Counted from the first letter of the stretch, positions 5,254 through 56,676 are shown. The stretch: 56,676 nt of DNA from Candidatus Spechtbacterales bacterium (GCA_040902285.1 JBBDXP010000007.1:67042-123717); one strand, 5' to 3'. Numbers and translations: made by a program. Notes: a model not told the origin generated them from the letters alone.

Positions 5254-5365
5254 CCCGTTAGTAATTACTGCTTGCGCAGTTTTAATTTATGTATATTTAA
5301 ACAAATTAACTACTTGTATTTGTTGCACTTGGTTTAGTGAACCCGTTAGGGTAATTACTAACGGG
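5254..5365 (-). repeat. CCCGTTAG...CTAACGGG start-codon-abutting element, subfamily A
   Basis: 15-bp TIR cccgttagtaattac / gtaattactaacggg; abuts ATG 5253; near-identical to copies at 23569 and 42950. Confidence 0.9.
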
Positions 5366-5425
5366 AATCATCCCCAGCACTATACCATAAATTTTATAAA
5401 ACACAAGTTTAAATATATGCAGAGC

Positions 5426-21073: not shown

Positions 21074-21243
21074 TATGATTTTTTAAAAATAAAATTATAT
21101 AAAAAATAAGCAAGCCCCGCAAAATATAAAACTTTCGCAAGAATCCAAAACCCAAATCCCAAAGAATTGCCCAAAAGAGGCAATGAAAAAAGCATTACGA
21201 GCCCCGCCGTTAAAAATATGATTTCGTTCGTTTTAAGTTTCAT
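21073..21243 (-). CDS. Small membrane protein (56 aa), not in the ORF track
   Basis: Manual translation MKLKTNEIIFLTAGLVMLFSLPLLGNSLGFGFWILAKVLYFAGLAYFLYNFIFKKS*; two hydrophobic segments; TAATG overlap with the next gene. Confidence 0.7.
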   Translation of the reverse strand: MKLKTNEIIFLTAGLVMLFSLPLLGNSLGFGFWILAKVLYFAGLAYFLYNFIFKKS

Positions 21244-21356
21244 CCCGTTAGTAATTGCTGCTATGCAGTTCTATCGCAATAAAATGCTACAGCGGTAATT
21301 ATTATGAATTTTGGTATTGTTTAAACGGATGACCCGTTAGGGTTATTACTAACGGG
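21244..21356 (-). repeat. CCCGTTAG...CTAACGGG element, divergent subfamily A
   Basis: Same ends and internal gacccgttaggg; abuts ATG 21243; supplies the polA TAG stop (21349-21351). Confidence 0.88.
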
Positions 21357-23568
21357 ATTCATCCGATTTTAAATTTCCCCAATTGTCCCCCACTTTGCAG
21401 TCCACCTTAAGAGGTACCGATAAGCTTGCGGCATTTTCCAAAATATCTTTGGCTTTGGAAATATTCTCTTTTATTTTATCATCAGGCCCTTCCCATAACA
21501 ATTCATCGTGTATTTGCAGTAAAAGATCCACGCCACGCAGTTCTTTGTCAGCTTTCACCATTGCCATTTTAACGATATCCGCGGCCGTGCCCTGCACCGG
21601 CATATTTATTGCGGCGCGTTCGGCCATTGCTCTTAGCATGGGGTTTGGGGAACTAAGATCGCTGATAAACCTTTTTCTGCCGAAAAGCGTTTCAACGTAT
21701 CCCAGCTCATGGGCCCTTCGTTTAGTTTCTTCCATGTAACGCGCTATGTTTTGAAAAATCTCCATATACCTTTGTATGAATTTTTTGGCCTCGTCAAAAC
21801 TTATTTCCGCTGATTCGGAAAACGCCTTGGGCCCTATTCCATATATAATTCCAAAATTGAGGGCTTTAGCCCTATATCTCATTTTTGGAGTAACATCTTT
21901 TTCTTTTATACCGAAAACCAGGGCGGCCGTATGCGCATGCACGTCCTCATCGCGGCGAAATACATCTATCATGTTTTTATCTTGCGCCAGATGCGCAATC
22001 ACGCGCAATTCCATCTGAGAATAATCGCACGCCATAAACTTTTTACCTTCTTCGGGAATAAAACTGCTCCTTATGTCTTCGGCGAATTCCCCTCTTATGG
22101 GAATATTTTGTAAATTAGGATCCTTGCTTGATATTCTTCCGGTGGAAGCTCCGAGAGAATTAAAAACGGTATGAATTCTGCTATTTTCGTCTGCCAATTT
22201 GGGGAGAGGCACCACATAGGTAGAAAGCAATTTTTGTATTTCTCTTTGTTCGAATATCAGGTCTACTATCGGGTGTTGTCCCCGCAATTTTTCCAGCTCG
22301 CTCGCGGCAATGGATATTTTTTTACCCGGGGTCTTTCTAAGACCCTTGGGGTCTATTTTTAATCTTTCAAACAAAATATCCGAAAGTTGTTGCGATGAAT
22401 TAATGTTGAATTTAATGCCCGCTTTTTTGTATATTTTTCTTTCTATGTCTTGAAGTTTCTTTTTGAGTTTTTTACTCAAGGCGGATAATTTGTCTTTATC
22501 TATTTTTATTCCTTTTTGTTCCATTTTTAAAAGCACGGGAATAAGTTCCTTTTCCAAATTATATATTTCATCGGATAATATTCCCGCTTCACGCGCACTA
22601 TCGACCTCGCGCAATATATCTTTTTCCCGGGATAACCCGTTAGACGCGCTGTCGGGCTCTATACTCTTAAAACCTTCCAGCTCATTTAATCCGGATAAAA
22701 GCCGGTTAAATTCAAGTTCTTGAAACAATTGGCGCGCCTTTTCAGGATCAAATCCTCCCCATTCAGCATCGCTAAGCTTAAAGTTAAGCTTTACATCCCT
22801 GCGAATAGTAGCCAGCATTCTTGAAAAAAGCGCCTGCTCTTTGTTCTCTTTTAAAATTATCCAAATGCGCTCACTTATAATATCGGGTTTCTCAACTTCG
22901 ACGGAGCGATACATATCATCCAGGTTCCCGTATTTTTTCAAAAGCACGGCCGCGGTTTTTTCTCCTACCCCCGGAACCCCCACTATATTGTCTGAGGGGT
23001 CTCCGCGGAGACCCTTGTAATCAACCATTTGCTCCGGCCTTAAACCAAAACGCGCTTTTACAGCTTCCTCATTATACAACACGGTATCCTGGACGCTCTT
23101 TTTCATCGTATAAACCCTGGTATGCGCGCTTACAAGCTGCAGGGTGTCCAGGTCTCCACTTGCTATGATTATTTTTATGTCCTCCTTTTTCTGTTCCACC
23201 AATTTCGACACAGTGCCTATTATATCATCGGCTTCGAAACCCTGTTTTTCATATACAGGTACATTAAACGCCGTCAGTACCTCTTTTATGCGGGGAATTT
23301 GCTCATACAGTTCATCGGGCGCTTTTTGTCGGGTTGCTTTATAATCTTCGTATTCCTCGTCTCTGAATGTGGGACCCTCAACATCAAAAGCGGCCGCAAC
23401 GTACGCGGGTTTTAATTCTTTCAGAGCTTTAATCAATATCGAAGAAAAACCGTAAACGGCGTTGGTAAGTTCTCCCTTTTTCGTTTTAAAGCGCGGCAGG
23501 GCATGGTATGCGCGATGAAAAATCGAATTAGCATCTATAAGTAAAAATATTTTTTCGCTATTATTCAT
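21349..23568 (-). CDS. polA: DNA polymerase I (5'-3' exonuclease plus polymerase; 3'-5' exonuclease domain absent)
   Basis: LIDANSIFHRAYHA, GDPSDNIVGVPGVGEKTA, PNLQNIP, DYSQMELR, QIHDEL; 739 aa. Confidence 0.95.
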   Translation of the reverse strand: MNNSEKIFLLIDANSIFHRAYHALPRFKTKKGELTNAVYGFSSILIKALKELKPAYVAAAFDVEGPTFRDEEYEDYKATRQKAPDELYEQIPRIKEVLTAFNVPVYEKQGFEADDIIGTVSKLVEQKKEDIKIIIASGDLDTLQLVSAHTRVYTMKKSVQDTVLYNEEAVKARFGLRPEQMVDYKGLRGDPSDNIVGVPGVGEKTAAVLLKKYGNLDDMYRSVEVEKPDIISERIWIILKENKEQALFSRMLATIRRDVKLNFKLSDAEWGGFDPEKARQLFQELEFNRLLSGLNELEGFKSIEPDSASNGLSREKDILREVDSAREAGILSDEIYNLEKELIPVLLKMEQKGIKIDKDKLSALSKKLKKKLQDIERKIYKKAGIKFNINSSQQLSDILFERLKIDPKGLRKTPGKKISIAASELEKLRGQHPIVDLIFEQREIQKLLSTYVVPLPKLADENSRIHTVFNSLGASTGRISSKDPNLQNIPIRGEFAEDIRSSFIPEEGKKFMACDYSQMELRVIAHLAQDKNMIDVFRRDEDVHAHTAALVFGIKEKDVTPKMRYRAKALNFGIIYGIGPKAFSESAEISFDEAKKFIQRYMEIFQNIARYMEETKRRAHELGYVETLFGRKRFISDLSSPNPMLRAMAERAAINMPVQGTAADIVKMAMVKADKELRGVDLLLQIHDELLWEGPDDKIKENISKAKDILENAASLSVPLKVDCKVGDNWGNLKSDESR

Positions 23569-23680
23569 CCCGTTAGTAATTACTGCTTGCGCAGTTTTAA
23601 TTTATGTATATTTAAACGAATTAACTATTTATATTTATTGCACTTGGTTTAGCAGACCCGTCAGGGTGATTACTAACGGG
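23569..23680 (-). repeat. CCCGTTAG...CTAACGGG element, subfamily A
   Basis: Abuts polA ATG 23568; flanked on the minus strand by ATGAAT on both sides. Confidence 0.9.
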
Positions 23681-23685
23681 ATTCA

Positions 23686-24168
23686 TTACTTTACCGTTAT
23701 TTCCCTAGTGTTTTCTCCTGTTTCTTTTATGCTCACCCGGATAGTATTTTGGGGCAAAATATCTTCTATTTTTTCCGCCCATTCCACAAGTATTATATTT
23801 CCGGGATCGGATACAACATCCTCCCACCCGATATCCTGTATCTCTTTGCTTGAATTTACCCTGTAACAATCCAGATGATAAAATTTCCTGATTTTCTTTT
23901 CAAAAACCCTATCGCGCACATCATATTTTTTCATCAACACAAATGTAGGGCTCGTAATCTTTCTGCCTATTTGCAAAAATTCCGCCACACCTTGCGCGAA
24001 TCTTGTTTTACCGGCCCCCAATTCTCCATTCAACGCAATAGTAATGGAGGTATTCCTGTTTTTTTTTGCCGCATTTTCTAATATTGCCCGGGCTATTAGT
24101 TTGGTTTCTGCCTCCGAAGATGAAATCAAACGGATGTCTCCGGTGCTTAACCTTTGTTCTTTTGACAT
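23686..24168 (-). CDS. tsaE: tRNA threonylcarbamoyladenosine biosynthesis ATPase
   Basis: LNGELGAGKT, ITSPTFVL, YHLDCYR, LVEWAE. Confidence 0.95.
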   Translation of the reverse strand: MSKEQRLSTGDIRLISSSEAETKLIARAILENAAKKNRNTSITIALNGELGAGKTRFAQGVAEFLQIGRKITSPTFVLMKKYDVRDRVFEKKIRKFYHLDCYRVNSSKEIQDIGWEDVVSDPGNIILVEWAEKIEDILPQNTIRVSIKETGENTREITVK

Positions 24169-40882: not shown

Positions 40883-42313
40883 ATGAAGGGCATTTTTAAA
40901 AATATTACCCTAAATACTATTGCGTTTTCCGCCGGCAGGATTACCGGAGGACTAATGGGACTTCTTGTTATAGGTATTATAGCCAGATCTTTGGGTGCCC
41001 GAGGTTTTGGAGAATATGCCACCATTATTGCTTACCTCGGAACATTTCAAATCTTAGCTGATCTTGGCCTTTACTCTCTTTTAACAAGAGAAATATCTCA
41101 AAACCCCGAAAAGGAAAAAGAGATTATAGGTTCATTTTTAACGCTGCGTCTTTTTGTCGCCGCGTTTTTTCTTTTAATCGCTTCGGCTCTGGTTTTTGTG
41201 TTTCCTTATTCCATGGAGGTTAAAATAGGTGTTGTGTATGCCGCCTCCGGATTTTTGTTTCTTTCACTTTCCCAGATATTTTTGGGTGTTTTTCAAAAGT
41301 ATATGCAAATCTACAAGGCCGCCATATCCGAAGTTATTGGGCGCGGAATACAGCTTGGCATAGTTTGGTTTCTTTTTTCCGCGGGTGGGACCTTGTTTTC
41401 TTATATAGGGGCTATGGTAGCCGGGGCTTTCGTTATGTTCGCGCTTAATATTTTTTTTGCAACAAGAATCGTGTCTTTTAGGCCCAGCATATCTTTGCAT
41501 AAATGGAAAAACATATTAAAACAGACCTATCCGATTGCTGTTTCTTTGATTTTTACCCTTCTTTATTTTAAAGCGGATACAATATTGTTATCTGTTCTTA
41601 AATCCCCCGAAGATGTGGGTCTCTATAACGCCTCTTATAAAGTTTTGGAAACACTTATATTCTTTCCGGCGGCTTTCGTCGGGCTTATGCTGCCTATAAT
41701 GTCCAAGTATGCTAAAGAAAACAGAGAAAAATTGTCTAAATTGCTGTCTGCCCTATCTGATATAATTACGGTATTTGCTTTGCCCATTGTCGCGGGCGGT
41801 GTTATTTTGTCCGCCACATTTGTGTACATTATAGGCGGACAGGAGTTTTTGGCCGCGGCGCCCGCAATGATGGTATTGTTTCTTGCTGTTGGAATAATTT
41901 TTTACGGCACGCTGTGGGGCAACTCTGTAATCGCCCTAAATTTGCAAAAGAAAGCAATGAAAATATACTTTGCCGGATTTGTTTTTAATTTTATCGCAAA
42001 CCTGCTTTTTATACCGGCATATTCATATATGGGGGCCGCTTGGACTACGGTTGTTACCGAACTTTTAGTTACAGCGTGGCTCTTTTTGCTTGTAAAAAAG
42101 GAAATTTCTTTTAGTATTTCTTTGAACGCAATAACAAAGGCGGTCGCGGGGACCGCCTTAATGAGTGTTGTTGTTTTTTACATCGCGGGCTCTCTTTACG
42201 AGCCGGTTTCTGTAATAAGATTTATAATGGCAATACTTGGCGGCATTGTTTTGTATTCTATGTTCGGGTTAAAAATTCTTAAAAATTTGTTCCAAAAAGA
42301 GGTTTTGCGCTAA
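40883..42313 (+). CDS. Wzx-like polysaccharide flippase (MOP superfamily)
   Basis: ARSLG..GFGEY, ADLGL...TREIS, DTILLS, VGLYNA, GAAWTT; about 14 TM. Confidence 0.88.
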   Translation: MKGIFKNITLNTIAFSAGRITGGLMGLLVIGIIARSLGARGFGEYATIIAYLGTFQILADLGLYSLLTREISQNPEKEKEIIGSFLTLRLFVAAFFLLIASALVFVFPYSMEVKIGVVYAASGFLFLSLSQIFLGVFQKYMQIYKAAISEVIGRGIQLGIVWFLFSAGGTLFSYIGAMVAGAFVMFALNIFFATRIVSFRPSISLHKWKNILKQTYPIAVSLIFTLLYFKADTILLSVLKSPEDVGLYNASYKVLETLIFFPAAFVGLMLPIMSKYAKENREKLSKLLSALSDIITVFALPIVAGGVILSATFVYIIGGQEFLAAAPAMMVLFLAVGIIFYGTLWGNSVIALNLQKKAMKIYFAGFVFNFIANLLFIPAYSYMGAAWTTVVTELLVTAWLFLLVKKEISFSISLNAITKAVAGTALMSVVVFYIAGSLYEPVSVIRFIMAILGGIVLYSMFGLKILKNLFQKEVLR

Positions 42314-42325
42314 GGTTTGCTATTT

Positions 42326-42949
42326 TCATTCTGCAACACACTCTTTACCGTTCCAGTCACAACCTTCCACATCGCACTCTTTTTCGCTTTTCATGAGATT
42401 GCAGTCGGGTTCGTCGGGAACACCTATGGGTTCTATTTTGTCTACACACTTGCTGTTTTTCCATTCACACTCAGGATGGCTGGGGCATTGGGAAAAATTC
42501 CATTGCGCGCAACCCGCGGGTTTTACGGAAGGGTCCTGCAGATTTGTTATTTGCGGATTTATAATATTTAAAATTATTACAGACAACAACAATATAAATA
42601 TACCCCACACCACATTTTTTAATCTTTCCCTCGCGGCGGCTCTAACCGCGGGGCTTTCTCCTCCGACTATAAACTGGATACCCGTGTATATTAAAGAAGT
42701 AAACGCGACCAGTCCCCCTATCCATATAGAGGCGACAAAAAGGAATAATATTATGTTGCCTATGGTCGGGTTGCAGGTTCCGTCTTCTATGCAGTTTAGA
42801 TCAAAAAATCCGCCGGGAACAGGCGCGGGTATTTTTGGGTAGTTTACATTCAAATCTATGCCCGCCGCGTTTGCGTTTACGGCAAGCGTCAAAACAAGGA
42901 TGCTAAAAACAGCAAGAGGTATTATTTTTTTAAAAATGTTCTTTTTCAT
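42326..42949 (-). CDS. T4SS pilin-like (TrbC/VirB2-like) protein with short Cys-rich tail, paralog 3
   Basis: Signal peptide ANA|A; YPKIPAPVPGG; IYTGIQFI...AAARERLKNVVWG...ILNIINP. Confidence 0.75.
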   Translation of the reverse strand: MKKNIFKKIIPLAVFSILVLTLAVNANAAGIDLNVNYPKIPAPVPGGFFDLNCIEDGTCNPTIGNIILFLFVASIWIGGLVAFTSLIYTGIQFIVGGESPAVRAAARERLKNVVWGIFILLLSVIILNIINPQITNLQDPSVKPAGCAQWNFSQCPSHPECEWKNSKCVDKIEPIGVPDEPDCNLMKSEKECDVEGCDWNGKECVAE

Positions 42950-43061
42950 CCCGTTAGTAATTACTGCTTACGCAGTTTTAATTTATATGTATTTAACTAA
43001 ATCAACTACCTATATTTACTGTACTTAGCTTAGCAGACCCGTTAGGGTAATTACTAACGGG
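42950..43061 (-). repeat. CCCGTTAG...CTAACGGG element, subfamily A
   Basis: Abuts ATG 42949; homologous to copies at 5254 and 23569. Confidence 0.9.
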
Positions 43062-43068
43062 ATTCATT

Positions 43069-43731
43069 CTATTGCTCTTCCGGTGACGCAAAATCTTCTG
43101 TGTATGGCTCTTCATGCTGTTCCAATTGCTGTTCCAATGCCAGGGTATCCAGTCCCGGGGAACTCGCGATTCTATAATAAAAGCTGGCCTCTGATTGCGG
43201 GACAAAATATAAAACTCCGGTTATATCCTGCAAATTGCTTGATTCTACGGCTACGCCCTCTTCCAGAAAAATATGCCACGGCCACTCGCTCTCATTGCTC
43301 CAGTAAACAAGATCCGGCTCACCATACTTATCTGTGTAGTCCGAAAAAGCTCCTCTGTAGTCGGAGTAAACATATTCCAGCGCGTAATAAACGGTTTCGC
43401 CTCTAAGCGCCACAACATTTTCAAAAAACTCTATGGGTGTTTTATAATACATATAAGTAAACACATCGTGCGTGGACACGGTGTAGGGCCGGCCAATAAT
43501 CTTTTCCACATCCTCGCGTGTGCTTTCCCCCGGGATTATCTCGTTAATCCTGCTGTAATCGGCTTCAAGGTCCATTGTCGGAGGAGCTTGATCGGGATCA
43601 ACTACCTCTCTTTCAAGTACCGCGCTTTCGTCCTCCCCGCTTGTCAATGTCAGTATAATCGCAACAACACCTATGACAAGAAATAAAGATATGGCTAAAA
43701 GAAAAATATGTTTTTTGATAAAATCTATCAT
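43069..43731 (-). CDS. Acidic membrane-anchored protein with a BamE/BLIP-like motif
   Basis: N-terminal TM; IIPGESTREDVEKIIGRP and KYGEPD half-repeats. Confidence 0.6.
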   Translation of the reverse strand: MIDFIKKHIFLLAISLFLVIGVVAIILTLTSGEDESAVLEREVVDPDQAPPTMDLEADYSRINEIIPGESTREDVEKIIGRPYTVSTHDVFTYMYYKTPIEFFENVVALRGETVYYALEYVYSDYRGAFSDYTDKYGEPDLVYWSNESEWPWHIFLEEGVAVESSNLQDITGVLYFVPQSEASFYYRIASSPGLDTLALEQQLEQHEEPYTEDFASPEEQ

Positions 43732-43743
43732 GATGTTAAAGAA

Positions 43744-45363
43744 TTAAGGATTATAAACATTCGTATTCATCCACCTGTTGGTGTCATCGCACTGCGTAGG
43801 TATGCTTGATATGTTTTGTGAGCATAAAAACCTTCCCCCGCGGTTAGTATACAGATAGTTAGCCATGCCTTCGGCGAAAGATTCTGAAAAGGCGCGAATT
43901 TTGGTGATACAGGAACTGCCGCCGTAAGACGGGCAGTAATAACGTAAGGCGTATGTTTTGACAAAGTGACGATCAGAATACGACGGGAAACAACTTGAAC
44001 TATCGCGCTGATAGCAGTCGGGGTCCAGGGTAGCCAAACCGGACAGGGCCGAGGTGAACTGAGTGCTTAAGCGTGGGTTTCTGCCGGTTATTATGTGCCC
44101 GCTTTCATGTTGTACTAGGCCGACTATTGCCGGATTGGTAAGCGTTAAGCATCCGAGGGTTTTGAATAATATGGTGTTGGCGTCGGATGCGTACCCGAAA
44201 CAATAGGACGGGTCAGAAGATGTGGGGGCGTATCTTACATAAAGTATGTTTCCTCCATAAATTAAATTTGTTCTGTATCCCGGCCCCCCACTTGTGGTGG
44301 CTTGATACATTGCGTCCCATACCTTTTTTATAAAATTAGAATTACTTGTTCCGGTAACAACAACATTGAATTCTTGTTTTAGACAAGTTGCGTATCCTGA
44401 AAGGAAGGGATCGCATGAGAATGTCATTCCACATTCAAACCTGCAAACTCCCGGCGCCCCGCCAAGTTCTATGCATTTGTTGTAACAACTAAGAACAGGG
44501 GCGTTGGTTTCGTCATCGTCATCCGGAGATTCGCACCCTCCGTCCACGGGATAGTCGATAAAAGTATCATCGTCATTATCTATTCCGTCCGAACACTGCG
44601 GTGCCGATTCAGTATCGTCGTCTCTTGACTCACACTGCGGGTCTTCCGGATAGTCAACAAAACCGTCATTGTCATTATCTTCCAAGTCCCAGCATTCGGG
44701 CGGGGGCGGAATACAAGGAACATCTTTGGATGTTCTTGCGTCTATGCATTCTGAGTGTCTTACAAGGTAACACCAACGAAGGTCGGGCACATATCCGCTC
44801 TGGCAATTATCTTCAGCAACCTCGCACTTCTCTTCGTCTTCATTCCATCCGCACGAAAAAACCCCCGTTATCGCCTCCGGTTCGGGTATTTTAAGGTTGG
44901 AGATAGTTCCCTTGTCTGCACCTTGCAGAAGCGGGTCTCGTAGATTTGTTATGTCGGGATTTATTATATTTAAAATAACAACAGTGGATAAGAGTATGGC
45001 TATTCCCCACATAACTTTCTGCAATCTGTCTTTGGCCGCCAATCTTACTTGAGCATCGCTTCCGGCAAGTATAAATTGTACCCCCGTGTACAAAAGAGAA
45101 ATAAGCGCGACAATGCCCCCGACCCATATAGCGGATATAAACAGGAAAAAAATTATGTTGCTTATTGACGGGTCGGGTATGTAGGAAGAGTAGCACCCGG
45201 ACAAATCATTCCAAAATACATCAATGCAGTTTAAATCAAAATATCCTCCAGGAACGGGTGCTGGAATAGCGGGATAGTCGATACTAAAGGCAAAACTCTG
45301 CGCTGGGACGAATAGCGCCGCAAAAACCACTATACCTGTAATTATTTTAACTACCGCATGCAT
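43744..45363 (-). CDS. T4SS pilin-like protein with Cys/Asp-rich repeats and C-terminal HExxH metallopeptidase-like domain, paralog 2
   Basis: Pilin-like N-terminus; two CxDxxDNDxDxFxDYPxDxxC repeats; VQHESGH followed by ESFAEG. Confidence 0.75.
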   Translation of the reverse strand: MHAVVKIITGIVVFAALFVPAQSFAFSIDYPAIPAPVPGGYFDLNCIDVFWNDLSGCYSSYIPDPSISNIIFFLFISAIWVGGIVALISLLYTGVQFILAGSDAQVRLAAKDRLQKVMWGIAILLSTVVILNIINPDITNLRDPLLQGADKGTISNLKIPEPEAITGVFSCGWNEDEEKCEVAEDNCQSGYVPDLRWCYLVRHSECIDARTSKDVPCIPPPPECWDLEDNDNDGFVDYPEDPQCESRDDDTESAPQCSDGIDNDDDTFIDYPVDGGCESPDDDDETNAPVLSCYNKCIELGGAPGVCRFECGMTFSCDPFLSGYATCLKQEFNVVVTGTSNSNFIKKVWDAMYQATTSGGPGYRTNLIYGGNILYVRYAPTSSDPSYCFGYASDANTILFKTLGCLTLTNPAIVGLVQHESGHIITGRNPRLSTQFTSALSGLATLDPDCYQRDSSSCFPSYSDRHFVKTYALRYYCPSYGGSSCITKIRAFSESFAEGMANYLYTNRGGRFLCSQNISSIPTQCDDTNRWMNTNVYNP

Positions 45364-45422
45364 GTTTATATTATAATATGTTTTTATGGATTATCATGAT
45401 AAAATCGTATTTCTTGAAAAAA

Positions 45423-46415
45423 TTATCTATATTCCGGTCCGCAGTCATCGCCAAAAATCCACCATCCTCCCCCCCAGTCGCATCCGGTTTTTTCTTCGCA
45501 GTCCTTTTCGTTTTCCATAAGACCGCATGCGTCTATTCTTAAGCAAGATATGCCTATGAATGACGGACTTCCACAATCGCTACCCGCGTCGTTACATATT
45601 TCCTGTCTGGCCTCGTAGCCATAGGGGCATACATCATTCGCTACTATGCACTTCCCGCTCGAACGTATGCAATCAAATGTGCCCAGTTCGCACTCAAGAT
45701 TTATTGGAAGATTACTCGGATCTTCACAGGGAGGCCATGCTTCCCTGCACAGCCCTGGGGCACCTCCCTCTGCCACACATCTTTCATAACACATTTTACA
45801 GTCGGTTGTGTCGGCGCTACACGCGCCATCGGGGACAAAATATCCTTGTGTACATTCACTTATTGCTCCGCAGCCGGTGCCTGTACCGGGGTCATAACAG
45901 GAGTATGTTCCGGGCTTGTCCAGAGGGTCGTCTTCACCGCTGGGTACACCCAGGGAATCTGTGGTTTCTGTATCTACATTGTCAAGGTTTAAGCCAAGTC
46001 GTGTAAGATCGGGATTTATGGTATTCAAAACGACGGTTGTGGACAAAAGTATCAGCATGCCCAATATAACATTTTGCAACCTTTTTTTCGCTTCAGCTCT
46101 TATCGGCGGGCTTTGTCCCGAGAATACAAATTGTCCTCCCGTATAAATTAAAGATACCAAAGCTATAAATCCCCCTGCCCAAAGAGCCATGGCAAATACG
46201 AACAGCACCAAAGTGCCTATAGTTGCCGGCGGTCTGTAAGAGGATGTGCATCCGGAAGCGTTTTTTAATCCTCCGTTGGGAAGCTGGAGGCAATCCAAGT
46301 CCAAACTCCCTCCCGGAACAGGCGCCGGCACAGCCGGATAATCTATTGCCTGTGCTGACGCGGGCATTATAATCGCGGCAGCTATAACTATTAATAGTAT
46401 GCAAACTCTTCTCAT
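45423..46415 (-). CDS. T4SS pilin-like protein with long Cys-rich tail, paralog 1
   Basis: AQA|IDYPAVPAPVPGG; IYTGGQF...AEAKKRLQNVILG...LNTINP; start ATG 46415 coupled by TAATG. Confidence 0.75.
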   Translation of the reverse strand: MRRVCILLIVIAAAIIMPASAQAIDYPAVPAPVPGGSLDLDCLQLPNGGLKNASGCTSSYRPPATIGTLVLFVFAMALWAGGFIALVSLIYTGGQFVFSGQSPPIRAEAKKRLQNVILGMLILLSTTVVLNTINPDLTRLGLNLDNVDTETTDSLGVPSGEDDPLDKPGTYSCYDPGTGTGCGAISECTQGYFVPDGACSADTTDCKMCYERCVAEGGAPGLCREAWPPCEDPSNLPINLECELGTFDCIRSSGKCIVANDVCPYGYEARQEICNDAGSDCGSPSFIGISCLRIDACGLMENEKDCEEKTGCDWGGGWWIFGDDCGPEYR

Positions 46416-46747
46416 TATTTTGTCAGGTCCATTAGCGCTTTTTTTGTCCAATAACCGGGTATCCATCCGAAAAAGAAGTTTTTTAACCAAGTTTTTATTT
46501 TTTGCCCCAAGGATTTATCTTTATTAATTTCCACATGCTGGAAAATATTTAAGGTTATCATTCCCAAAAAAGGAGGTATGCCTTGCAGGGGCGCCGTAAA
46601 GCCCAGTGTTACAAGGGTGAAAAGCCAGAATATAACAGTCATCATATCAAGCATCATGGCCCAAAAAATTAATACAAAGCCCATGGCGCTGAATCTGCTT
46701 ACTCTTCTGTCGCGTTTTTTTAGGTTTTTGATTGCGAACTTTGGCAT
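46415..46747 (-). CDS. Small membrane protein of the T4SS-like operon
   Basis: Hydrophobic core; tightly packed between virB4 and the pilin paralog. Confidence 0.6.
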   Translation of the reverse strand: MPKFAIKNLKKRDRRVSRFSAMGFVLIFWAMMLDMMTVIFWLFTLVTLGFTAPLQGIPPFLGMITLNIFQHVEINKDKSLGQKIKTWLKNFFFGWIPGYWTKKALMDLTK

Positions 46748-46749
46748 AA

Positions 46750-48597
46750 TTATTCTTCCTCCTTGGCTTTTTGTATCTGCAAAAGCTGTTCAGGATCCGA
46801 GGTTATTATTTGGTCCTCCACATAGGAGGCAACCACTTTTATGGCAACATGCTTTGTGCCGGCAAAAAACAGGCCTTCTCCTACATTATTTTCAAGCAGA
46901 AGATATTTTTCTTCGTCCGTTAAGTTGAATATCTGCTGAAGTTTGTCTATGGTGGCGGCATGCTGTTTCATTAATATTTGCAGAGACGAGTTCGTGATTA
47001 TGGCTCTTCCGTAATCGGAGTTCATAAAATCCTCTATGTCTTGGGTTATGGTTGTAACTCCCAGATAGTATTTTCTGGCTCTTTTGGCTATACCGAACAA
47101 AAAGGCCGCGCTTTCGGGGTGCTGCAATAGCCACCACGCCTCATCTATGACCAGTATTCTTCTTTTTAGTTCTTTGCGTATATTGGTCCAAATGTAATTT
47201 ATTATTATGTACATTGCCACCGGCCTTAATTCGTCTTCCATGTCTCGGATATTAAATACGACAAGCCGGCTTTTAAGCTGAATATTGGTCTGTTTATTTA
47301 AAAATCCGGAATATACCCCCGTTGTGTATTTTTCCAAACGCTGCGCCAAGCTTTCCCCTCCCTCCATGCTGCTCAATACTGTGTGCAAGTCCTGCATAAG
47401 AGGTGGAGTTATTTCCCAAAAATTCGGAGTTGCCGGAGTTATGTCTTTGGATGCATATGTCTGGTTTATTGCTTCGTTCAATATGCTTTCTTCTTCGGGG
47501 GTCATGGATCCCAGCATTATTTTTAAAAGCCCTATAAGGGTTATTATATTAGCCCGCAAAACTTCTTTTGGGTCTTCGTCCTTTTGAGGCGCGGGCAGGT
47601 CGAACGGGTTGATATGGTCCCCGCTTGTAAGAGAAACTTTAAAAAAACTGCCCCCGGTTGTTTCGGCTAGGTATTGGTATTCATTTTCCGGATCTATAAC
47701 TATTACATCTGTTCCCATCATTAAGGAGCGCAGAACTTCAAGTTTTATGGCATAGCTTTTGCCGCCACCGCTCTTGCCGAGTATTACAGTGTTGGCGTTT
47801 TCCAGAGAAAACCTGTCAAAAAGTATTAAGCTGGAATTATGCCTGTTTATTCCGTAAAGAATGCCCTTATCGTCTGTAAGGTCAAAAGATACAAAAGGAA
47901 AAGTCGAAGAAAGCGGAGAAGTGTTTAAGCTTCTTGTCACCTTTAACTCGTCCAGGTTTACGGGTATGCCCGAGCGCAGGCCTTCTCCCTGCTGGTATAC
48001 AGCTTGCTTTAAGTAGACAAGACGGCTTTCCAATATAGAGCGTATTTCATTTTCTATTTTATCCAGCTCCTCTTTTGTTTTTCCGTATATCAAGACATAC
48101 AGGCCGAACTGGAACATTTTTTCTTCCGCTGTCTGCATTTTGTCCCGCAAATCTTCTATGTTGCGGTACGCGGTATCCAGGACCGGGTCGCGTATCATGC
48201 CCTTCTCTTCTCTTTCCATCATTTCCGCTTCAATTCCGGTAAGCCGGCTTTGTAGCTGTTTTAATATCTTTTCCGTGCTTACGGGTTGTATAAACATGGA
48301 AATATCAACCGTCTGATCCATATTTATAATGGGACTCATCCAGTTTTGCGCCAAATATCTGGGATAACTGAATACAAAAAGCGTGCGTACCAAAGTATTA
48401 CCCAGTTTTACATGGTCCAGCTCCACTTCTATGGCGGGGGGTGCTATCACATCAAGAAGTTTTTGGCGTTTTTGTTCGTTTATTTCCTTTTGGGTCTGTC
48501 CCTGCCACCGATAGCCCTGTATTGTTGCCGGCTGTTTGCCTGCCTGTCCGGTAGGCGGGCCCGGCTGCCGTGGGTTGTAATTGGGTTGTTGAGGCAT
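46750..48597 (-). CDS. virB4: VirB4/TraC-like ATPase
   Basis: GILYGIN, FDRFSLENAN, GKSGGGKS, VIDPENEY, INPFD, VIDEAW, KRARKY, TQD; start ATG 48597. Confidence 0.9.
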   Translation of the reverse strand: MPQQPNYNPRQPGPPTGQAGKQPATIQGYRWQGQTQKEINEQKRQKLLDVIAPPAIEVELDHVKLGNTLVRTLFVFSYPRYLAQNWMSPIINMDQTVDISMFIQPVSTEKILKQLQSRLTGIEAEMMEREEKGMIRDPVLDTAYRNIEDLRDKMQTAEEKMFQFGLYVLIYGKTKEELDKIENEIRSILESRLVYLKQAVYQQGEGLRSGIPVNLDELKVTRSLNTSPLSSTFPFVSFDLTDDKGILYGINRHNSSLILFDRFSLENANTVILGKSGGGKSYAIKLEVLRSLMMGTDVIVIDPENEYQYLAETTGGSFFKVSLTSGDHINPFDLPAPQKDEDPKEVLRANIITLIGLLKIMLGSMTPEEESILNEAINQTYASKDITPATPNFWEITPPLMQDLHTVLSSMEGGESLAQRLEKYTTGVYSGFLNKQTNIQLKSRLVVFNIRDMEDELRPVAMYIIINYIWTNIRKELKRRILVIDEAWWLLQHPESAAFLFGIAKRARKYYLGVTTITQDIEDFMNSDYGRAIITNSSLQILMKQHAATIDKLQQIFNLTDEEKYLLLENNVGEGLFFAGTKHVAIKVVASYVEDQIITSDPEQLLQIQKAKEEE

Positions 48598-48598
48598 A

Positions 48599-49249
48599 TT
48601 AATCAAAAATGGATTTAACAAGCCCCCTTTTTCTAAGATCTCCGGGATTATAAAGTATCCAGAACAAAGAAATAAGCTCTTCGGTTGTAAGAGTTCTTGC
48701 GGTAAGGCCGAGGCGGTGCAATCCGCTGGAAACAAAATCAACTCTTTGCATAAGCTGGCCTTTATAAAAAGAAAATTTTTCGGGATCTATCGTGGCCAAT
48801 TCTCCGCTCTTTCCCACCACACTTTTGAATCTCTCTCCGGCCCCTCCCTGCATTGTGGCGGTTTCTACCAAACTGAATGGTACAACCACATAAAAATCTG
48901 TGGCCACTATGTTTGCTTCTTTTACGAATTGCCCGATAAAGTTTATATATTCGTTTGTCTGCATTTGCAAAAGATCAGAAGTTTCCTGGGTTAATCTTTG
49001 TTGCAAACTTTCTATGTATCTGTCGATATTCATTAAACGGGAATTTATAAATATTTGTATTGAAAAATCCAGAGAATTTAAAAAGTTTTGATATTCGTAA
49101 ATTATCGCCTCTTGCTCCTGTTGGCTTTTTAACGCTAAGTTTATACTTGAAACCTGCAAAATGGCGCGCATGTGCCCGCCCTTAGCAACCACAACATCGC
49201 TTCTTATATTGTCTATTTTTACAAAATCTTGTGTGCTTGTTTCTGGCAT
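48599..49249 (-). CDS. VirB4-associated protein (TraC N-terminal-like) of the T4SS-like locus
   Basis: STQDFV, SSINLALKS..EQEAII..YQNFLNSLDF, FYVVVP; located between prgI and virB4. Confidence 0.7.
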   Translation of the reverse strand: MPETSTQDFVKIDNIRSDVVVAKGGHMRAILQVSSINLALKSQQEQEAIIYEYQNFLNSLDFSIQIFINSRLMNIDRYIESLQQRLTQETSDLLQMQTNEYINFIGQFVKEANIVATDFYVVVPFSLVETATMQGGAGERFKSVVGKSGELATIDPEKFSFYKGQLMQRVDFVSSGLHRLGLTARTLTTEELISLFWILYNPGDLRKRGLVKSIFD

Positions 49250-49250
49250 T

Positions 49251-49670
49251 TTATTGGTTTAAAATATCCGCTAAGTTTTTAATATCGCGCAATTTTTCTT
49301 CTTCGGTCGGTTCCGCTCGTTCCGCGGGAGCGGTTTTTTGATTACCGGAATATTGAGGCGCCCACTTGGTGCCCTTGGGCATTTTAGCTTCTGTTTTGCG
49401 CCAAGTGTATTTTCTGGGTTGGAAAAAATAATTTATAAAATACATTACGAAATCTATAAGCGGGCGCCCGTTAACCTGTACAAAAGCCATTGTCAGGGCA
49501 ACACCGGACACTATAACGGCAAGCAGCGTAAACACAAAAAAGTTCTTAAATAAAAGATAAAGCACGAATATTATCGCGCCCGCCCCCAGAAGTATTACTG
49601 TTTGCCGCACGGTTAGCGGTCCCAGCAACCTATCCTCTCTTTCAACAAATTGTGGTACGGGATATTGCAT
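49251..49670 (-). CDS. PrgI-family protein
   Basis: MQYPVPQFVEREDRLLGPLTVRQ, two TM, NGRP, PRKYTW. Confidence 0.85.
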   Translation of the reverse strand: MQYPVPQFVEREDRLLGPLTVRQTVILLGAGAIIFVLYLLFKNFFVFTLLAVIVSGVALTMAFVQVNGRPLIDFVMYFINYFFQPRKYTWRKTEAKMPKGTKWAPQYSGNQKTAPAERAEPTEEEKLRDIKNLADILNQ

Positions 49671-49778
49671 ATTTTTTGCTTCGCAAAACCGCAGATTTAT
49701 GCTGATTTAGCGGATTTATACTGATGATTTTAAATGCGTTATCTGTATCTATCAGCCCAATCTGCATTGATCCGCGTT
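49671..49778 (-). repeat. Palindromic array of ~9-nt units, copy 2
   Basis: Reverse complement aligns with 40174-40290, including the GCGA(A)GCAAAAAA(C/T)ATG end. Confidence 0.7.
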
Positions 49779-49796
49779 TGAGTGAACGAAGTGAAC

Positions 49797-50264
49797 TCAC
49801 TCTATTATTTTTCTCGTTACCGATTCGTCTTTGTGGTGCGATTCCGGTTTTTTTTCGTCTTTTACATCATTATCTTTTTCTCCCCTTGATGTTTCAGTTT
49901 CTTTCTTGGCTTCTTGAGCGGCTTTTTGCCAGTTTTCTTCCGCTTTTTCCTGCATGTCTGCCAGTTCTTTGGCAACCGGAGCAAAAATTTCGGCCCGCAC
50001 ATCATGCGCCACATTCCTTGCGGTTTCCGCATCAAGGCCAGCTTCACTTTGCAGGGCGTCAATAAATCTTTTTATTGGCACAAGGCCGACCATCGCGTAG
50101 CCTATGATGGCCGACACGTCAAAAATCTTATCTGCCTCGACATTATATCTTTGTGTCAAATTTTCCACGGCTTCAGCGGTATTTTCGGATAGAAGCATAT
50201 CGTTGACACCCTCAGGTATTTCATTGAATGCTTGTAAATATTCTTCTCGGGCAAAGTTTAACAT
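49797..50264 (-). CDS. Hypothetical acidic helical protein
   Basis: 155-aa ORF co-oriented within the operon. Confidence 0.65.
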   Translation of the reverse strand: MLNFAREEYLQAFNEIPEGVNDMLLSENTAEAVENLTQRYNVEADKIFDVSAIIGYAMVGLVPIKRFIDALQSEAGLDAETARNVAHDVRAEIFAPVAKELADMQEKAEENWQKAAQEAKKETETSRGEKDNDVKDEKKPESHHKDESVTRKIIE

Positions 50265-50298
50265 AAATTTATTTGAAAATATTTGTATTTACTTTTTT

Positions 50299-52327
50299 CT
50301 ATGAATCCTTATTCTTATCTTTATCTGTATCTTTATCCGTACCTCCGCTTTTTGCTGAATCTAACGCTTCCCTTATTTCTTCTCCAATATCTTTTTTTCT
50401 GGCAGTTTTGAGTAATGCGGCAATATTTGGACTGGTGCTAATATTGTTCGCGAAAGAAGAGCCCGTGCGGCGTTTTATTACATCTTCCACCGCGCCCCCG
50501 ACTAAGCCATAAGCAGCCGATATTCCTGCCTCCAATGCTTTTGTTTTTTCAATGTCTTTACCTATATCGGCAACAAAGCTCTTGGTAAACTTATCCTGTT
50601 TGATCAATTCATCTACTATACCCGGATCTTTTAAAACTCCAGGGGACCAGTTTCTCATCGATTTTTCTGTTGCTTTAGCTATAACTTCCCCAATATCTTT
50701 ACCGAGCTGTTTTGCAATGTCCGGCCTGATTTCGAGTACGCTCTTTTCACTGCCCGGCATTGTTATACTTCGGGCGTTCATCTCTTTTGCGAACTTCTCA
50801 AATTTCTTTGTTCCATTTGCCTTATCATCTGTTTTGAGTTTGTCCACATGCTCATTAAATTTGTCGGGATGCTTATTTACCAGTAAGTCGGTTATCTTTG
50901 CCCTTTCTTTTGAATTTGAGGTATAATTAAGGGCTTGAAGCAGGGCTGTTGGAGAATAATTATCATAACCCTTAACTTTTTTCCATTCTTGTTGGTATGT
51001 TTCTTTTCCGGCCCCGTATCCTTTTCTAATGGGTGCAACCAATTGTTTTATTCCCGGTAGTTGAAGCACGGTTTTAATCGGTTTTCCAACGCTACTCGTT
51101 ACCCCTTTTGCTTTTTCGGGTGTTACATCCTTATACAACGTGGATCCGCCTACGTCTCTTATTTGTCTTGACACCCACCTTCCGCTCGCGTTTACACCTC
51201 CTTGATACAGCCGTCTTGCCCCTTTTATTATTGCCTGTGAACCCTCCGCGCTGAATGACATACTCATCATTATTCCTATAACCAAGGCCCCAAGAGCAAA
51301 TACCATCTGTGACGCCTCACATATATTCAATTCTGCTTGCAAATCGTTAATCTCGGTTGGATTGCTTGTTATGACGGTGGGACAAGGCACTTCAAGGAAC
51401 CACCCGGCCAGCCACAGGGAGAAAAGAAGCGGAACTATTATTATGGACCACTGTATGAAATTGCTCCACCAGCGGTCGTATAATCTTGCCATCATATACT
51501 TAACGTTTAAAAATTAATCCTATAAAAGCTATTGGAGAAAGTATAACCAGTATTGTCAGCATAAGCGTTCTTCCGAAGAGTAGCAGGGATAAAAGCAAAT
51601 ATACAAATATTAAAAACAAGTTGATTAAAATAGAAACAACCGCTTTTACAAGTATTGCTATAGCTTCTGATATGTCCGCACTGAATATACTGCCCAACAC
51701 GGCAATTATATCTCCAAACACATCCCCTAAATAGTCGAAGCCCCCGAACGGATTACTGTTTATCAACGCGCTGCTGCTTCTTTTGGCGCTTTCCCAAAAA
51801 ACATAACCCGCTATATTTGATAGATCTATAATTATACCGGTTATTATCGGCGTAAAGTTTATCAGAAGCGCTACAACAAAAAATCTTCCCAGCATACGCT
51901 TGTTTATTGTCTGCAGATTGAGCATTGTTCCCACGCCTATAGCCACAAAAACAATAACAAGCGACATATTAGCTAAATCACGCATTACGGGCCAACCTAC
52001 ATCAAATATTGTTCCGGATGTGTAAGTATGTGTGAGTGTTAGCTCTAAGAAAAATTCCATGAACATCCGCGCTATCCACGCAACAAATATAAGCAACAGG
52101 TTTACTATTGCGGCTAGTATGACAACAACGGCTATTAAAAAGGCCATTACTATTCTGAAAAAGAACTCAAATACAGCCGTTGCAACATCTTCAAAGAAAC
52201 CGGCATTGGCTGGCTCTGGCATTAACATGAGGGTTCCTGCTATCAAAACAACAGCCACAATCAAAACAGTCCTCGCAACAGGCGCCTTTTCGTTAAAAAT
52301 ATTCTTAGGGTTTAAAATGCCCCTCAT
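50299..52327 (-). pseudogene. VirB6/TrbL-like polytopic membrane protein split by a frameshift (51500-52327 and 50299-51495)
   Basis: GWPVMRDLAN, VALLINFT, ILSPIAFI, then 'YDRWWSNFIQWS' continues in another frame; removing one base of ATTTTTAAAC restores one ORF. May be a sequencing error. Confidence 0.65.
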
Positions 52328-52441
52328 CCCGTTAGAAGCAGATTGCGATTAAACCACAACCTGCAGTTCTTAATTATTTATTTGAATTATTATTGTTTTA
52401 AATTACTCATCCCGTATATTGCGATCGCGACTTCTAACGGG
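52328..52441 (-). repeat. CCCGTTAG...CTAACGGG element, subfamily B
   Basis: Abuts ATG 52327; homologous to 40769-40882. Confidence 0.9.
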
Positions 52442-52496
52442 ACTTATTGACTTAATTATACAACAGGGCGTTTGTAGTAGCCAATCTACTTTTCCA

Positions 52497-53348
52497 CTAA
52501 TTTAAATTATTTGCGCGCAATAGTTCAGCGAGTTTAAGCCAATCTTTGGGGTGCAGGGCTTCTGCCCTTATCGATATATCCAACCCTGCGGTTTTAAGCG
52601 TGTTTTCGATGTCGGCCCGGGGTATTTTAAATTGTTTAGACAAATTTTTTGCCAGTTGTTTGCGCGGAGAAGAAAAACCCGCTTTAACCGCGCGAAAAAG
52701 CTCTTCCTCATTTGTTTTTGGCTTTTCTATATTTTTAACGGTTAAAATAGCCGAGTTTATTTTTGGTTTTGGCCAAAAAGCGCTGCTCGGTATTTGTTTT
52801 TCCAGTTTTGTTTTGCCGTATATTTGTACGGAAATCGCCAGAAGGTTGGTTTTGGGAGGACGGGCTGTAATTTTTTCAGCTATTTTCTTCGGAATAATAA
52901 CCGCTATTAATTTGGGAGGGTTCTCTGTGTTTTCAAGAAATTTTCTGAACAATCTAGCTGTTAGGTAGTATGGAATCGCGCCCACTAGTTTATAGGATCT
53001 TGCTTGAGAGTTTGTCCGCCAGTTGGCGGATTGTAAATTGTAAATTGAAAATTTTAATATATCATCTTCTACAATCTCAACATTTTTATGATTTGCGAAT
53101 TCATCTTTAAGCAATTTCACAAGCCGAGGATCTTTTTCTACAGCTATTACTTTTTTAGCTTTTTTTGCCAGTTCTTGCGTTATCCCCCCTGTCCCGGGGC
53201 CAACTTCAATCACGACATCTTTTGAGGATATTTCAGCCGAGGCAATTAAATCAATTATATATTTTTTATCAATTAAAAAATTCTGCCCTAATACTTTGTT
53301 CGGCGTTATGTTGTATTTTTCTAACAGGATTTTTATTTTATTTGACAC
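52497..53348 (-). CDS. rsmA: 16S rRNA adenine dimethyltransferase
   Basis: LGQNFLID, IEVGPGTG, AVEKD, IPYY, FWPKPKINS, RAEAL. Confidence 0.95.
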   Translation of the reverse strand: MSNKIKILLEKYNITPNKVLGQNFLIDKKYIIDLIASAEISSKDVVIEVGPGTGGITQELAKKAKKVIAVEKDPRLVKLLKDEFANHKNVEIVEDDILKFSIYNLQSANWRTNSQARSYKLVGAIPYYLTARLFRKFLENTENPPKLIAVIIPKKIAEKITARPPKTNLLAISVQIYGKTKLEKQIPSSAFWPKPKINSAILTVKNIEKPKTNEEELFRAVKAGFSSPRKQLAKNLSKQFKIPRADIENTLKTAGLDISIRAEALHPKDWLKLAELLRANNLN

Positions 53349-55695: not shown

Positions 55696-56676
55696 ATGAG
55701 GATGCGTGACATATTTATGCGTATTAAAAACCTTTTGCTTTTATCCAAGGATAAGGGCTCGGGGGTTTTTTACGGATTAAAGAAAACCGACGCCAATTCT
55801 CTTTTTTCTTTTGCGTGGAAGAGTTTGGCGATTTTTATTTTTGGGGGAATTCTTGTTGCCGGGTTTCGCGCAACTGAGATAAGTACTATTTTGCCTTTGC
55901 ATGCCGCCGCCGAGAAATCAATACCTGCTGAAAAAAATACGCGCATAGACCCTACCCTCGGATCTCAGCCGTTTTTAAACGGCCGGTTAATAGCGTCTAT
56001 TGAAATTCCTGCGGTACAGGACCAGGAATCAGGCACCGGAGGAGCTGTTTATCCTTCAATATCAACAGTGCAGGGGGTTGCTTTGTTGCCTACAACAGCC
56101 CCAATTATACCAGAACCGCCTTCTAAAGACAGAGCACAAATAATTGAATACATAGTAAAACCATATGACACGCCTTCCGGCATTGCAGCGGCATATGGCT
56201 TGAAGCTGAACACTCTTTTGTGGAGCAACCATATAGATAATCCAAATCTTATACACCCGGGAGACAAGCTTTTCATACTTCCTGTGGACGGACTTACATA
56301 CCAGGTAAGCAACGGAGATACGCTTTCAAGGATAGCATCCAAATTCAAAGCGGATATGGGTGATATTCTAAAATATAACGATATAGAATCCGCACAACAT
56401 ATATTTCCCGGACAGTTGCTCATAATCCCCGGAGGCGTGGAACCGCCGGCATCTTCATCAAGTTCGGGCCGTTCATCATCATCTTCTTCCCAATACGCGT
56501 ATTCATCTTTGCCCAATTTAGACGGATATTTCGCGATGCCTGTTCACGGAAGAATAACTCAGGGTCTGCACTTAAAAAGTGGAGTTGATATTGGAAACAA
56601 GCGCGGAACGCCTATTATGCCCCGGCAAGCGGAGCAGTGGGCATAGCCGTAAATAACGGGCGGTGGAACGGAGGGT
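55696..56676 (+). CDS. Double-LysM / M23 peptidase, partial at the window end, with an apparent frameshift near 56616
   Basis: Two LysM repeats; 'ITQGLH..SGVDIGNKRGTPI' continues in another frame as YAPASGAV...GRWNGG; start uncertain. Confidence 0.8.

Follow-up and report, generated by a model that had tools for sequence, protein, structure and literature searches.

We analysed a stretch of 56,676 nucleotides from a Candidatus Spechtbacterales bacterium (GCA_040902285.1, JBBDXP010000007.1:67042-123717), hereafter the window, in which three paralogous genes, P1, P2 and P3, are found downstream of virB4 in a type IV secretion system (T4SS) locus. With moderate confidence, we regard their products as VirB2-like pilin-domain fusions, which would be handled by a chromosomal, relaxase-free T4SS and would expose disulfide-rich tails with adhesive or enzymatic functions. 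A preliminary description of this DNA had proposed three tandem paralogs with a constant pilin-like N-terminus and Cys-rich cargo tails, and had read them as a polymorphic, pilus-displayed adhesin/effector system for host contact, a reading that our results support in part. All three open reading frames (ORFs) exist on the minus strand, with the N-domain motifs present in each, but they are not strictly tandem, as P2 is separated from P3 by a further gene (orf220) and a 124-nt repeat. The Cys-rich modules were also found, although the tail of P2 ends, in addition, in a domain of ~250 aa with an HExxH motif. The three genes and their parts are the following:

45423-46415, minus strand: P1, pilin-fusion protein of 330 aa (ORF call, hidden Markov model (HMM), motif)
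45996-46415, minus strand: N-domain of P1
45426-45995, minus strand: tail of P1, 190 aa, 20 Cys
45840-45911, 45744-45791, 45615-45683 and 45474-45527, minus strand: modules B, A, B and CxW, respectively, in the tail of P1
43744-45363, minus strand: P2, pilin-fusion protein of 539 aa (ORF call, HMM, motif)
44941-45363, minus strand: N-domain of P2
44791-44865 and 44440-44487, minus strand: modules B and A, respectively, in the tail of P2 (398 aa, 24 Cys)
44632-44694 and 44533-44595, minus strand: two acidic, Cys-bracketed DNDxD..DYP repeats of P2
43747-44508, minus strand: orphan C-terminal domain of P2, with HESGH at 44095-44109 and ESFAE at 43870-43884
42326-42949, minus strand: P3, pilin-fusion protein of 207 aa (ORF call, HMM, motif, AlphaFold2 (AF2) model)
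42539-42949, minus strand: N-domain of P3
42461-42511 and 42353-42403, minus strand: two CxW modules that make up the tail of P3 (70 aa, 8 Cys)

Pilin-type N-terminal domains

The N-domains of P1, P2 and P3, each ~140 residues long, are built of a hydrophobic signal segment, the motif YP(A/K)(V/I)PAPVPGGxxDLxC (residues 26-42, 30-46 and 37-53, respectively) and a two-helix hairpin. The short outer segment with YPxxPAPVPGG carries 2 Cys. In hydropathy profiles the hairpin appears as two long hydrophobic helices with 4 Lys/Arg in the connecting loop of each paralog, and it ends with INPxxTxL; the predicted topology is N-out, loop-in and C-out. Identity of the other two paralogs to P1 is 52% and 43% in this domain. 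Among the 3070 ORFs of at least 50 aa in the genome, YP..PAP.PGG is confined to P1-P3.

Comparison with T4SS_pilin models had been set beforehand as a possible refutation of the pilin-like character of the N-termini, and the N-termini match. In Pfam, P3 scores 27.3 bits with T4SS_pilin (PF18895), above the cut-off of 26.6. An HMM constructed from the three N-domains and searched against 1.84 billion representative proteins returned 6383 matches at E<=0.001, of which 189 reached E<=1e-10 and 14 reached E<=1e-30, the lowest E-value being 1e-72. A library of the 109 best matches to this profile was scanned with Pfam, and 94 of them contain PF18895 at E<=0.001; three (P0053, P0076 and P0108) match both PF18895 and the TrbC/VirB2 family PF04956. 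Alignment of the N-domain profile with five short pilins encoded elsewhere in the same genome (hhalign) gave a probability of 89.9% and E=1.7e-6. Because of the profile search and of the similarity to the short pilins, P1-P3 are joined to the PF18895 family, and judged by sequence their N-termini are pilin-type domains. The definition of the T4SS_pilin family as little more than a hairpin does not describe P1-P3, whose tails measure 190, 398 and 70 aa. In the AF2 model of P3, computed from a 66-row alignment (mean predicted local distance difference test score, pLDDT, 76.5), helices 63-95 and 100-130 have pLDDT 82-93, and the first CxW module is also modelled confidently.

Cys-rich tails and the variable slot after virB4

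Tails of all three proteins are acidic, and each has an even number of Cys (20, 24 and 8). Two of the modules that had been described as shared pairwise were confirmed by BLASTP: module A, CYxxCxxxGGAPGxCR, in P1 and P2 (E=7e-5) and the CxW module, CxLMxxEKxC..GCDW, in P1 and P3 (E=1e-4), the second copy in P3 being more diverged than the first. A third, initially given as GxFxC..KCxVAxDxCxxGY and here defined as module B, G[TV][FY]SC..C..C..GY, is present in two copies in P1 and in one copy in P2. Its pairwise similarity is weak (E=0.15), but its recurrence is not, since the pattern matches 15 of 67 family tails and none in 200 shuffles; it usually starts 26-63 residues past the pilin domain. 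Pairwise BLASTP of the P2 and P3 tails disclosed no significant similarity, and whole-tail phmmer searches gave no link among the three at E<=0.01; for the short modules pairwise BLASTP was needed. The acidic repeats of P2 resemble NCBIfam acid_disulf_rpt weakly (E=0.017, below the cut-off). Scans of P1-P3 with Pfam and NCBIfam revealed no recognised hydrolase, adhesin or toxin domain.

The family used in these comparisons comprises 67 non-identical proteins, each with a single N-terminal domain of this kind, after removal of P0001, which is P1 with a longer start, and of the fragment P0011. Tails of at least 60 aa are found in 63 of the 67 (median 231, range 7-582). At least 4 Cys occur in 61 of the 67 tails, in even number in 57 of these 61, and the median Cys content of tails is 5.1% vs 0.42% in ORFs of at least 200 aa in the genome. 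Because long tails characterize 63/67 proteins and even Cys numbers 57/61, Cys-rich tails, predicted to be extracellular, are a trait of the family at the sequence level. The genome also encodes two DsbA-like and two VKOR genes.

To compare arrays among relatives, the N-domain profile was searched in 31 related genomes, 23 of which matched at E<=1e-8, the bacterium's own genome counted; each of the 7 remaining members of its GTDB family gave 2-4 matches. Loci of eight relatives were fetched for synteny comparison. They follow the order KsgA, VirB6-like, orf155, PrgI, TrsD, VirB4, a small membrane ORF, pilin fusions, flippase, Jag, YidC and DnaA. The array is adjoined by virB4 in 7/8 loci and by the flippase gene in 6/8, while the remainder end at contig ends. 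Between virB4 and the flippase gene, relatives carry 2-4 pilin-fusion genes with products of 167-1248 aa, and PF18895 was detected at E<=0.01 in 21 of their 24 array proteins. Peptidase_M23 exceeds the cut-off in 3 of the 24, and weak M23, SLT, SLT_3, M74 and cellulase matches are present in others. In the library of 109 proteins, M23 (8 proteins), SLT (6) and VanY (1) are over the cut-off, and tails of the beta/gamma-crystallin type were detected in 4, once over the cut-off. Invariance of the tails across relatives had been named as a possible refutation; the tails vary, and the slot after virB4 is a variable site of pilin fusions in relatives.

In 9/109 library proteins, 5-7 pilin domains are present per chain. 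These “polyproteins” of 445-1046 aa (P0028, P0031, P0042, P0053, P0069, P0071, P0079, P0099 and P0108) may be real genes or merged gene calls.

The closest view of tail change is offered by L056, a metagenome contig of 52.8 kb, which is fully syntenic and carries orf110', P1' (=P0002), P2' (=P0152), orf209, P3' and the flippase gene. Identity between the window and L056 is 92% for VirB4, 90% for DnaA, 84% for TrsD, 81% for YidC and Jag, 78% for the flippase and 74% for PrgI. It falls to 65-70% in the pilin N-domains, 58% in orf220 and 57% in orf110, and is 45%, 61% and 48% in the tails of P1, P2 and P3, respectively. Tails thus diverge faster than N-domains, and N-domains faster than core genes. 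Each paralog has an ortholog with a matching tail plan in this sister genome, with differences in modules: the P3 tail of 70 aa with two CxW modules corresponds to one of 99 aa with three in P3', and the P2 tail of 398 aa with two acidic repeats to one of 363 aa with a single acidic repeat and a decayed module A in P2'.

A tree of N-domains, constructed from 38 of 69 alignment rows and mostly from those with higher scores, unites (P3,P0010), (P2,P0152) and (P0003,(P1,P0002)) in one clade with support of 90/82. The N-domain of P0003 groups with P1 (support 100/99), while its tail, devoid of module A, begins with the CxW module seen in the P3 lineage. This mixed plan, together with the module differences on L056, argues at the sequence level that tails change by gain, loss, copy number and transfer of small Cys modules. 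DNA repeats among the three paralogs of the window cover the N-domain alone and are 60-76% alike, and thus include no fresh conversion or recombination tracts. Metagenome contigs from one sediment study gave no usable tail variation, and run X2 spans the array in short pieces.

The C-terminal domain of P2 (residues ~286-539, ~250 aa) is known from four sequences, P2, P0152, P0026 and the fragment P0153. HExxH is invariant in all four (HESGH, HETGH, HETAH and HETGH), as is ESFAE, located 71 residues past it, whose Glu may be the third metal ligand, as in gluzincins. In the ESM Atlas the domain lies near unnamed Chloroflexota clusters and near clusters of zincin families, including Peptidase_M90, ATLF, Mx1, M48 and DUF2268, with scores of 0.92-0.94 and TM values of 0.39-0.60, which we treat as leads only. 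Taken together, the motifs point to a probable zinc metallopeptidase of the gluzincin type. Its occurrence is restricted: of the 401 genomes sampled from the class, it was detected in one, the window's own, and the genome-contig search found no relative. The metagenome contigs gave one locus, L056, and word-index searches gave P0152 and the 184-aa fragment P0153. The closest named relative of P2 comes from a Candidatus Spechtbacteria metagenome-assembled genome.

P2 is followed by orf220, which has one N-terminal helix and an outer domain weakly similar to BamE/DUF4309; its homologue orf209 follows P2' on L056. A complex prediction for the P2 C-domain and the orf220 ectodomain gave a score of 0.00 and no verdict, and is evidence in neither direction. 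In five relatives, an anchored protein of 216-339 aa directly follows one large-tailed pilin. These proteins belong to a separate family with no detectable relation to orf220. The tails that precede them contain M23 over the cut-off in two genomes (G005 and G007), weak M23 in G002 and weak M74 in G006, while that in G004 has no Pfam match. A second family of small anchored proteins (153-182 aa, ending in ...SFC) is interleaved in loci L040-L045 (G002-G007).

Locus and genome context

Other features of the locus are:

42945-43068, strand not assigned: MITE-like repeat of 124 nt with 15-nt terminal inverted repeats, between orf220 and P3
43069-43731, minus strand: orf220, N-terminally membrane-anchored protein of 220 aa, between P2 and P3
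46415-46747, minus strand: orf110, small membrane protein of 110 aa, between virB4 and P1
46750-48606, minus strand: VirB4-type ATPase of the CD1110 family (HMM)
48599-49249, minus strand: TrsD-like protein (HMM)
49251-49670, minus strand: PrgI/VirB3-like protein (HMM)
49797-50264, minus strand: orf155, conserved locus protein of 155 aa, role unassigned
50299-52327, minus strand: VirB6-like polytopic gene, split into ORFs of 275 aa and 398 aa (position, relatives)

The interval from virB4 to the flippase gene is filled by five minus-strand genes, orf110, P1, P2, orf220 and P3. The start codon of P1 overlaps the stop of orf110 as TAATG, so a longer P1 ORF reaching 46490 is probably unused; the P1 ortholog on L056 begins at the equivalent point. 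PrgI, the TrsD-like protein and VirB4 (393.9 bits with conju_CD1110, cut-off 325) are encoded upstream of the array on the same strand. The array had been placed directly downstream of virB6-like, prgI and virB4 genes; the order is correct, but the 110-aa membrane gene intervenes between virB4 and P1. Counterparts of orf110 (117-147 aa, with (L/F)xWAxxLD) are present in 7/7 relatives whose locus reaches there and on L056. No known family in Pfam or NCBIfam matches orf110, which may be an unrecognised conserved part of the T4SS.

The gene named virB6-like is polytopic, but it has no HMM match and is split in two. A TAA stop and a 4-nt spacer with a change of frame separate a membrane part of 275 aa from a hydrophilic part of 398 aa. 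Counterparts in four relatives are single ORFs of 652-853 aa that align across the junction. The gene may be genuinely split or broken, or the interruption may stem from an error of assembly.

On the downstream side of the array, genes for a Polysacc_synt/MurJ-like flippase, Jag, YidC, YidD and RnpA lie on the other strand, followed by minus-strand DnaA and DnaN. With dnaA and dnaN ~3.8 kb away, the position beside oriC given in the preliminary description holds. So does the reported lack of relaxase, VirD4 and integrase genes in the window: in the genome (623,642 bases in 15 contigs, 95% complete) VirD4-type families match only contig C1, two relaxase families searched genome-wide gave no match, and the sole tyrosine recombinase is on C15. 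The match on C1 (5054-6058), far from the T4SS locus, is a candidate VirD4/TraG-like coupling protein with 30.2 bits for PF02534 and 25 bits for PF12696, both over the cut-off.

Of the five short PF18895 pilins of the genome, four form a tandem group on contig C9 and the fifth is on C14; all are candidate major subunits of the pilus. Those on C9 (14842-16928, 123-162 aa) are located beside gyrA, and three have an N-terminal HGxH...C...LICxYG extension; the one on C14 (8929-9342) has 137 aa. A gene for a LysM-repeat protein at 55696-56646 (plus strand) runs off the end of the window's contig, and C14 opens with an M23 fragment; a single LysM-M23 gene may bridge the two contigs.

The 124-nt repeat has the ends CCCGTTAGTAATTAC ... 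GTAATTACTAACGGG, which are its 15-nt terminal inverted repeats, and folds as a long hairpin (z=-5.3). Apart from the copy in the array, 13 near-full copies of 84-98% identity are scattered on contigs C5, C7, C9, C12, C13 and C14; within the window, copies are located at 5251-5371 and 23564-23687, with an ends-only copy at 21238-21362. In metagenome contigs the depth of the repeat bin is 146 vs ~11, the contigs are interrupted at the repeat, and 67-70 nt are missing from some of them. The gap between the orf220 homologue and P3' on L056 is only 19 nt, which indicates that the repeat was inserted into the array. No Rfam family matches it, and it looks like a miniature inverted-repeat transposable element (MITE).

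A scan of 42000-53000 for promoters and terminators gave numbers near those in shuffled sequences (29 vs 23.7±5.2 and 21 vs 12.7±3.5, respectively). Rfam scanning of the window at gathering thresholds gave 0 matches.

Possible display on the pilus, rival explanations and meaning

According to the pilin-fusion reading, Sec/YidC would insert P1-P3 so that their tails face outward, and the tails would be disulfide-bonded by the DsbA/VKOR pairs of the genome. VirB2 pilins enter the membrane, VirB4 assists their extraction, and both their ends are exposed at the outer face of the filament. By analogy, the VirB4 machine of this locus would take up the pilin hairpin, and tails would be presented on the pilus, most likely on minor or tip subunits, or beside it. 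On a filament built of short pilins, the fusions would probably occupy minor or tip positions, a role assumed because tails of 190-398 aa are hard to pack on every subunit. Modules A, B and CxW and the acidic repeats could serve as stalks or bind the surface of the host cell. The putative metallopeptidase of P2 would occupy the place of the M23 (and, weakly, LAS- or SLT-like) wall hydrolases of relatives, with orf220 as a possible accessory partner of this domain.

Parts of this scheme have parallels in known systems. Pilins of the VirB2/TrbC/TraA type (PF04956) and those of archaeal Ced-type pili (8dfu) likewise combine a signal peptide, a two-helix hairpin with a basic loop and a VirB4 partner, but they are small and, unlike P1-P3, have no C-terminal domains. 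Modular type IV pilins, such as PilB and PilC of Streptococcus sanguinis, consist of a pilin and a C-terminal functional module displayed by the filament; type IV pili are unrelated to T4SS, and the likeness to P1-P3 is an analogy only. In T4SSs of Gram-positive bacteria, the VirB1-like PrgK, TraG of pIP501, TcpG and the adhesin PrgB are anchored outer proteins with wall-cutting or adhesive functions. These systems are of the MPF-FATA type, like that of the window, although the anchor in P1-P3 is a pilin hairpin and not a single helix. SLT, CHAP and M23 domains, which would define a VirB1-like hydrolase, are absent from P1-P3, and domains of this kind (M23, SLT and VanY) are present on the equivalent hairpin in relatives. 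Polymorphic toxins, such as those of contact-dependent inhibition (CDI) and Rhs systems, have a constant N-part and a variable C-part. The small gene after one member of the array is alike, in contrast to the absence of toxin domains, to the two members without a partner and to the tails kept between sister genomes.

Among Patescibacteria, the text of Quinonero-Coronel et al. 2025 (PMC12102498) describes MPF-FATA-like T4SSs with VirB2-like pilins near virB4, few relaxases and a position near dnaA. Identities of VirB2-like pilins given there average 25% with a maximum of 54%, and 43-55% in the window fits this range. T4SS and pilins are essential for epibiotic growth of Southlakia epibionticum, according to the text of Wang et al. 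2023 (PMC10633639), and its pilin array SEML1_0014-0019, as well as other Patescibacteria arrays, is like that of the window in PF18895, in the lack of relaxase and in the proximity of dnaA. In the window, every member has a Cys-rich tail of 70-398 aa, one of them enzyme-like, unlike the short pilins listed for Southlakia.

Several observations weigh against incorporation of P1-P3 into a pilus or against details of this scheme. Taken alone, P1 and P2 score 19.1 and 15.4 bits with PF18895, each below the cut-off of 26.6. Foldseek returned no match to the P3 model at E<=0.001. VIA-align placed 8dfu_B, the conjugation pilus of Aeropyrum pernix, at rank 10 (Z 7.8, rmsd 3.5, 74/84 residues), with unrelated hairpins around it at Z 7.2-8.7, so that the fold search is non-discriminating for pilin hairpins. 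A VirB2-type filament would have difficulty in accommodating a tail of 190-398 aa on each subunit. Polymerisation and expression of P1-P3 are putative, and their incorporation into a pilus is inferred by analogy. No wall hydrolase is recognised in P1-P3, and the essential pilins of Southlakia, as listed in the tables of PMC10633639, are short (e.g. 417 and 435 nt), with PF18895 over most of their length, and are not fusions. As for the P2 C-domain, no match was found in Pfam at E<=10 or in PDB by sequence or by profile, and its AF2 model from a 3-row alignment was unusable (mean pLDDT 42.2) and for that reason excluded from the fold search. The zinc-peptidase reading is limited because it rests on two conserved motifs and the Atlas lead.

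The main rival takes the hairpin as a mere membrane anchor and docking device at the base of the T4SS; the proteins would remain in the membrane of their own cell, where they would open its wall locally or hold a partner cell and would not polymerise, in analogy to VirB1-type hydrolases (PrgK, TraG of pIP501) and surface adhesins in Gram-positive conjugation. Such a role would suit the large tails and the M23, SLT, VanY and LAS-like wall enzymes that relatives carry on the equivalent hairpin, and the filament proper could be formed by the five short pilins encoded elsewhere. It would also suit the statement in the text of PMC12102498 that, in Southlakia, homologues of peptidases and lysozyme encoded close behind virB4 are essential. 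Features of the pilin family are, however, conserved over wide distances, which would be needless for a plain anchor; serial arrangement of 5-7 pilin domains in library proteins suggests a role beyond anchoring, and P1 and P3 are without an enzyme domain. On balance, we regard an anchoring role as possible, although doubtful.

We consider it unlikely that the array is a polymorphic toxin-like system, in which the N-domain would be a delivery handle, the tails toxins directed to the host, and orf220 the immunity protein of P2. The constant N-domain with a variable C-terminus, fast tail evolution and a partner gene directly after the enzyme-tailed P2, kept on the sister contig, would be expected of it. 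P1 and P3, however, have no downstream partner gene, and no toxin family was found in Pfam or NCBIfam. Tail plans are orthologous in the sister genome with no strain-level swapping of tails, and the inter-paralog repeats, limited to the N-domain, offer no fresh recombination tracts. Furthermore, the anchored partner family of relatives is the same behind M23 and (weakly) LAS-like tails, which misfits specific immunity. It is still far less probable that P1-P3 are unrelated membrane proteins, with a compositional match to the pilin model and tail motifs shared by chance. The scores of P1 and P2 below the Pfam cut-off and the resemblance of hairpins to many folds would agree with this, as opposed to the E-values of the N-domain profile, the position after virB4 kept in 7/8 loci of relatives, and the tail modules (E=7e-5 and 1e-4 in pairs; module B in 15/67 tails and in 0/200 shuffles).

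T4SSs of Patescibacteria, their pilin arrays, the absence of relaxase and the position near oriC are already published. In the literature searched, including the text and a few supplementary rows of PMC12102498 and PMC10633639, no fusion of a pilin domain with a Cys-rich tail or a hydrolase was found. Within these limits, fusion members with large Cys-rich or enzymatic tails, the variable slot after virB4 and the orphan HExxH domain with its partner appear to be new. Extending the pilin-fusion reading, we tentatively propose, as a possibility of rather low probability, that Patescibacteria use their T4SS pilus as a modular scaffold for display, in which VirB4-extracted tip or minor fusions would bring to the host cell binding modules knotted by disulfides and enzymes that cut walls or surfaces, among them a new zincin family known from four sequences. 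If this is true, host range would be set at the slot after virB4, which would act as a rapidly evolving site for cassettes.

Patescibacteria, the ultra-small bacteria to which the bacterium studied here belongs, probably use the T4SS to reach their hosts. In the one genetically tested member the system is essential for epibiotic growth, as stated in the text of PMC10633639. The locus studied here keeps fast-changing outer domains anchored by pilin hairpins, which are putative binding modules in this bacterium and wall hydrolases in relatives. The orphan HExxH domain and the small Cys modules are targets for structural work, and the array offers a testable idea of how the T4SS may meet the host surface and why pilin paralogs persist in small genomes.

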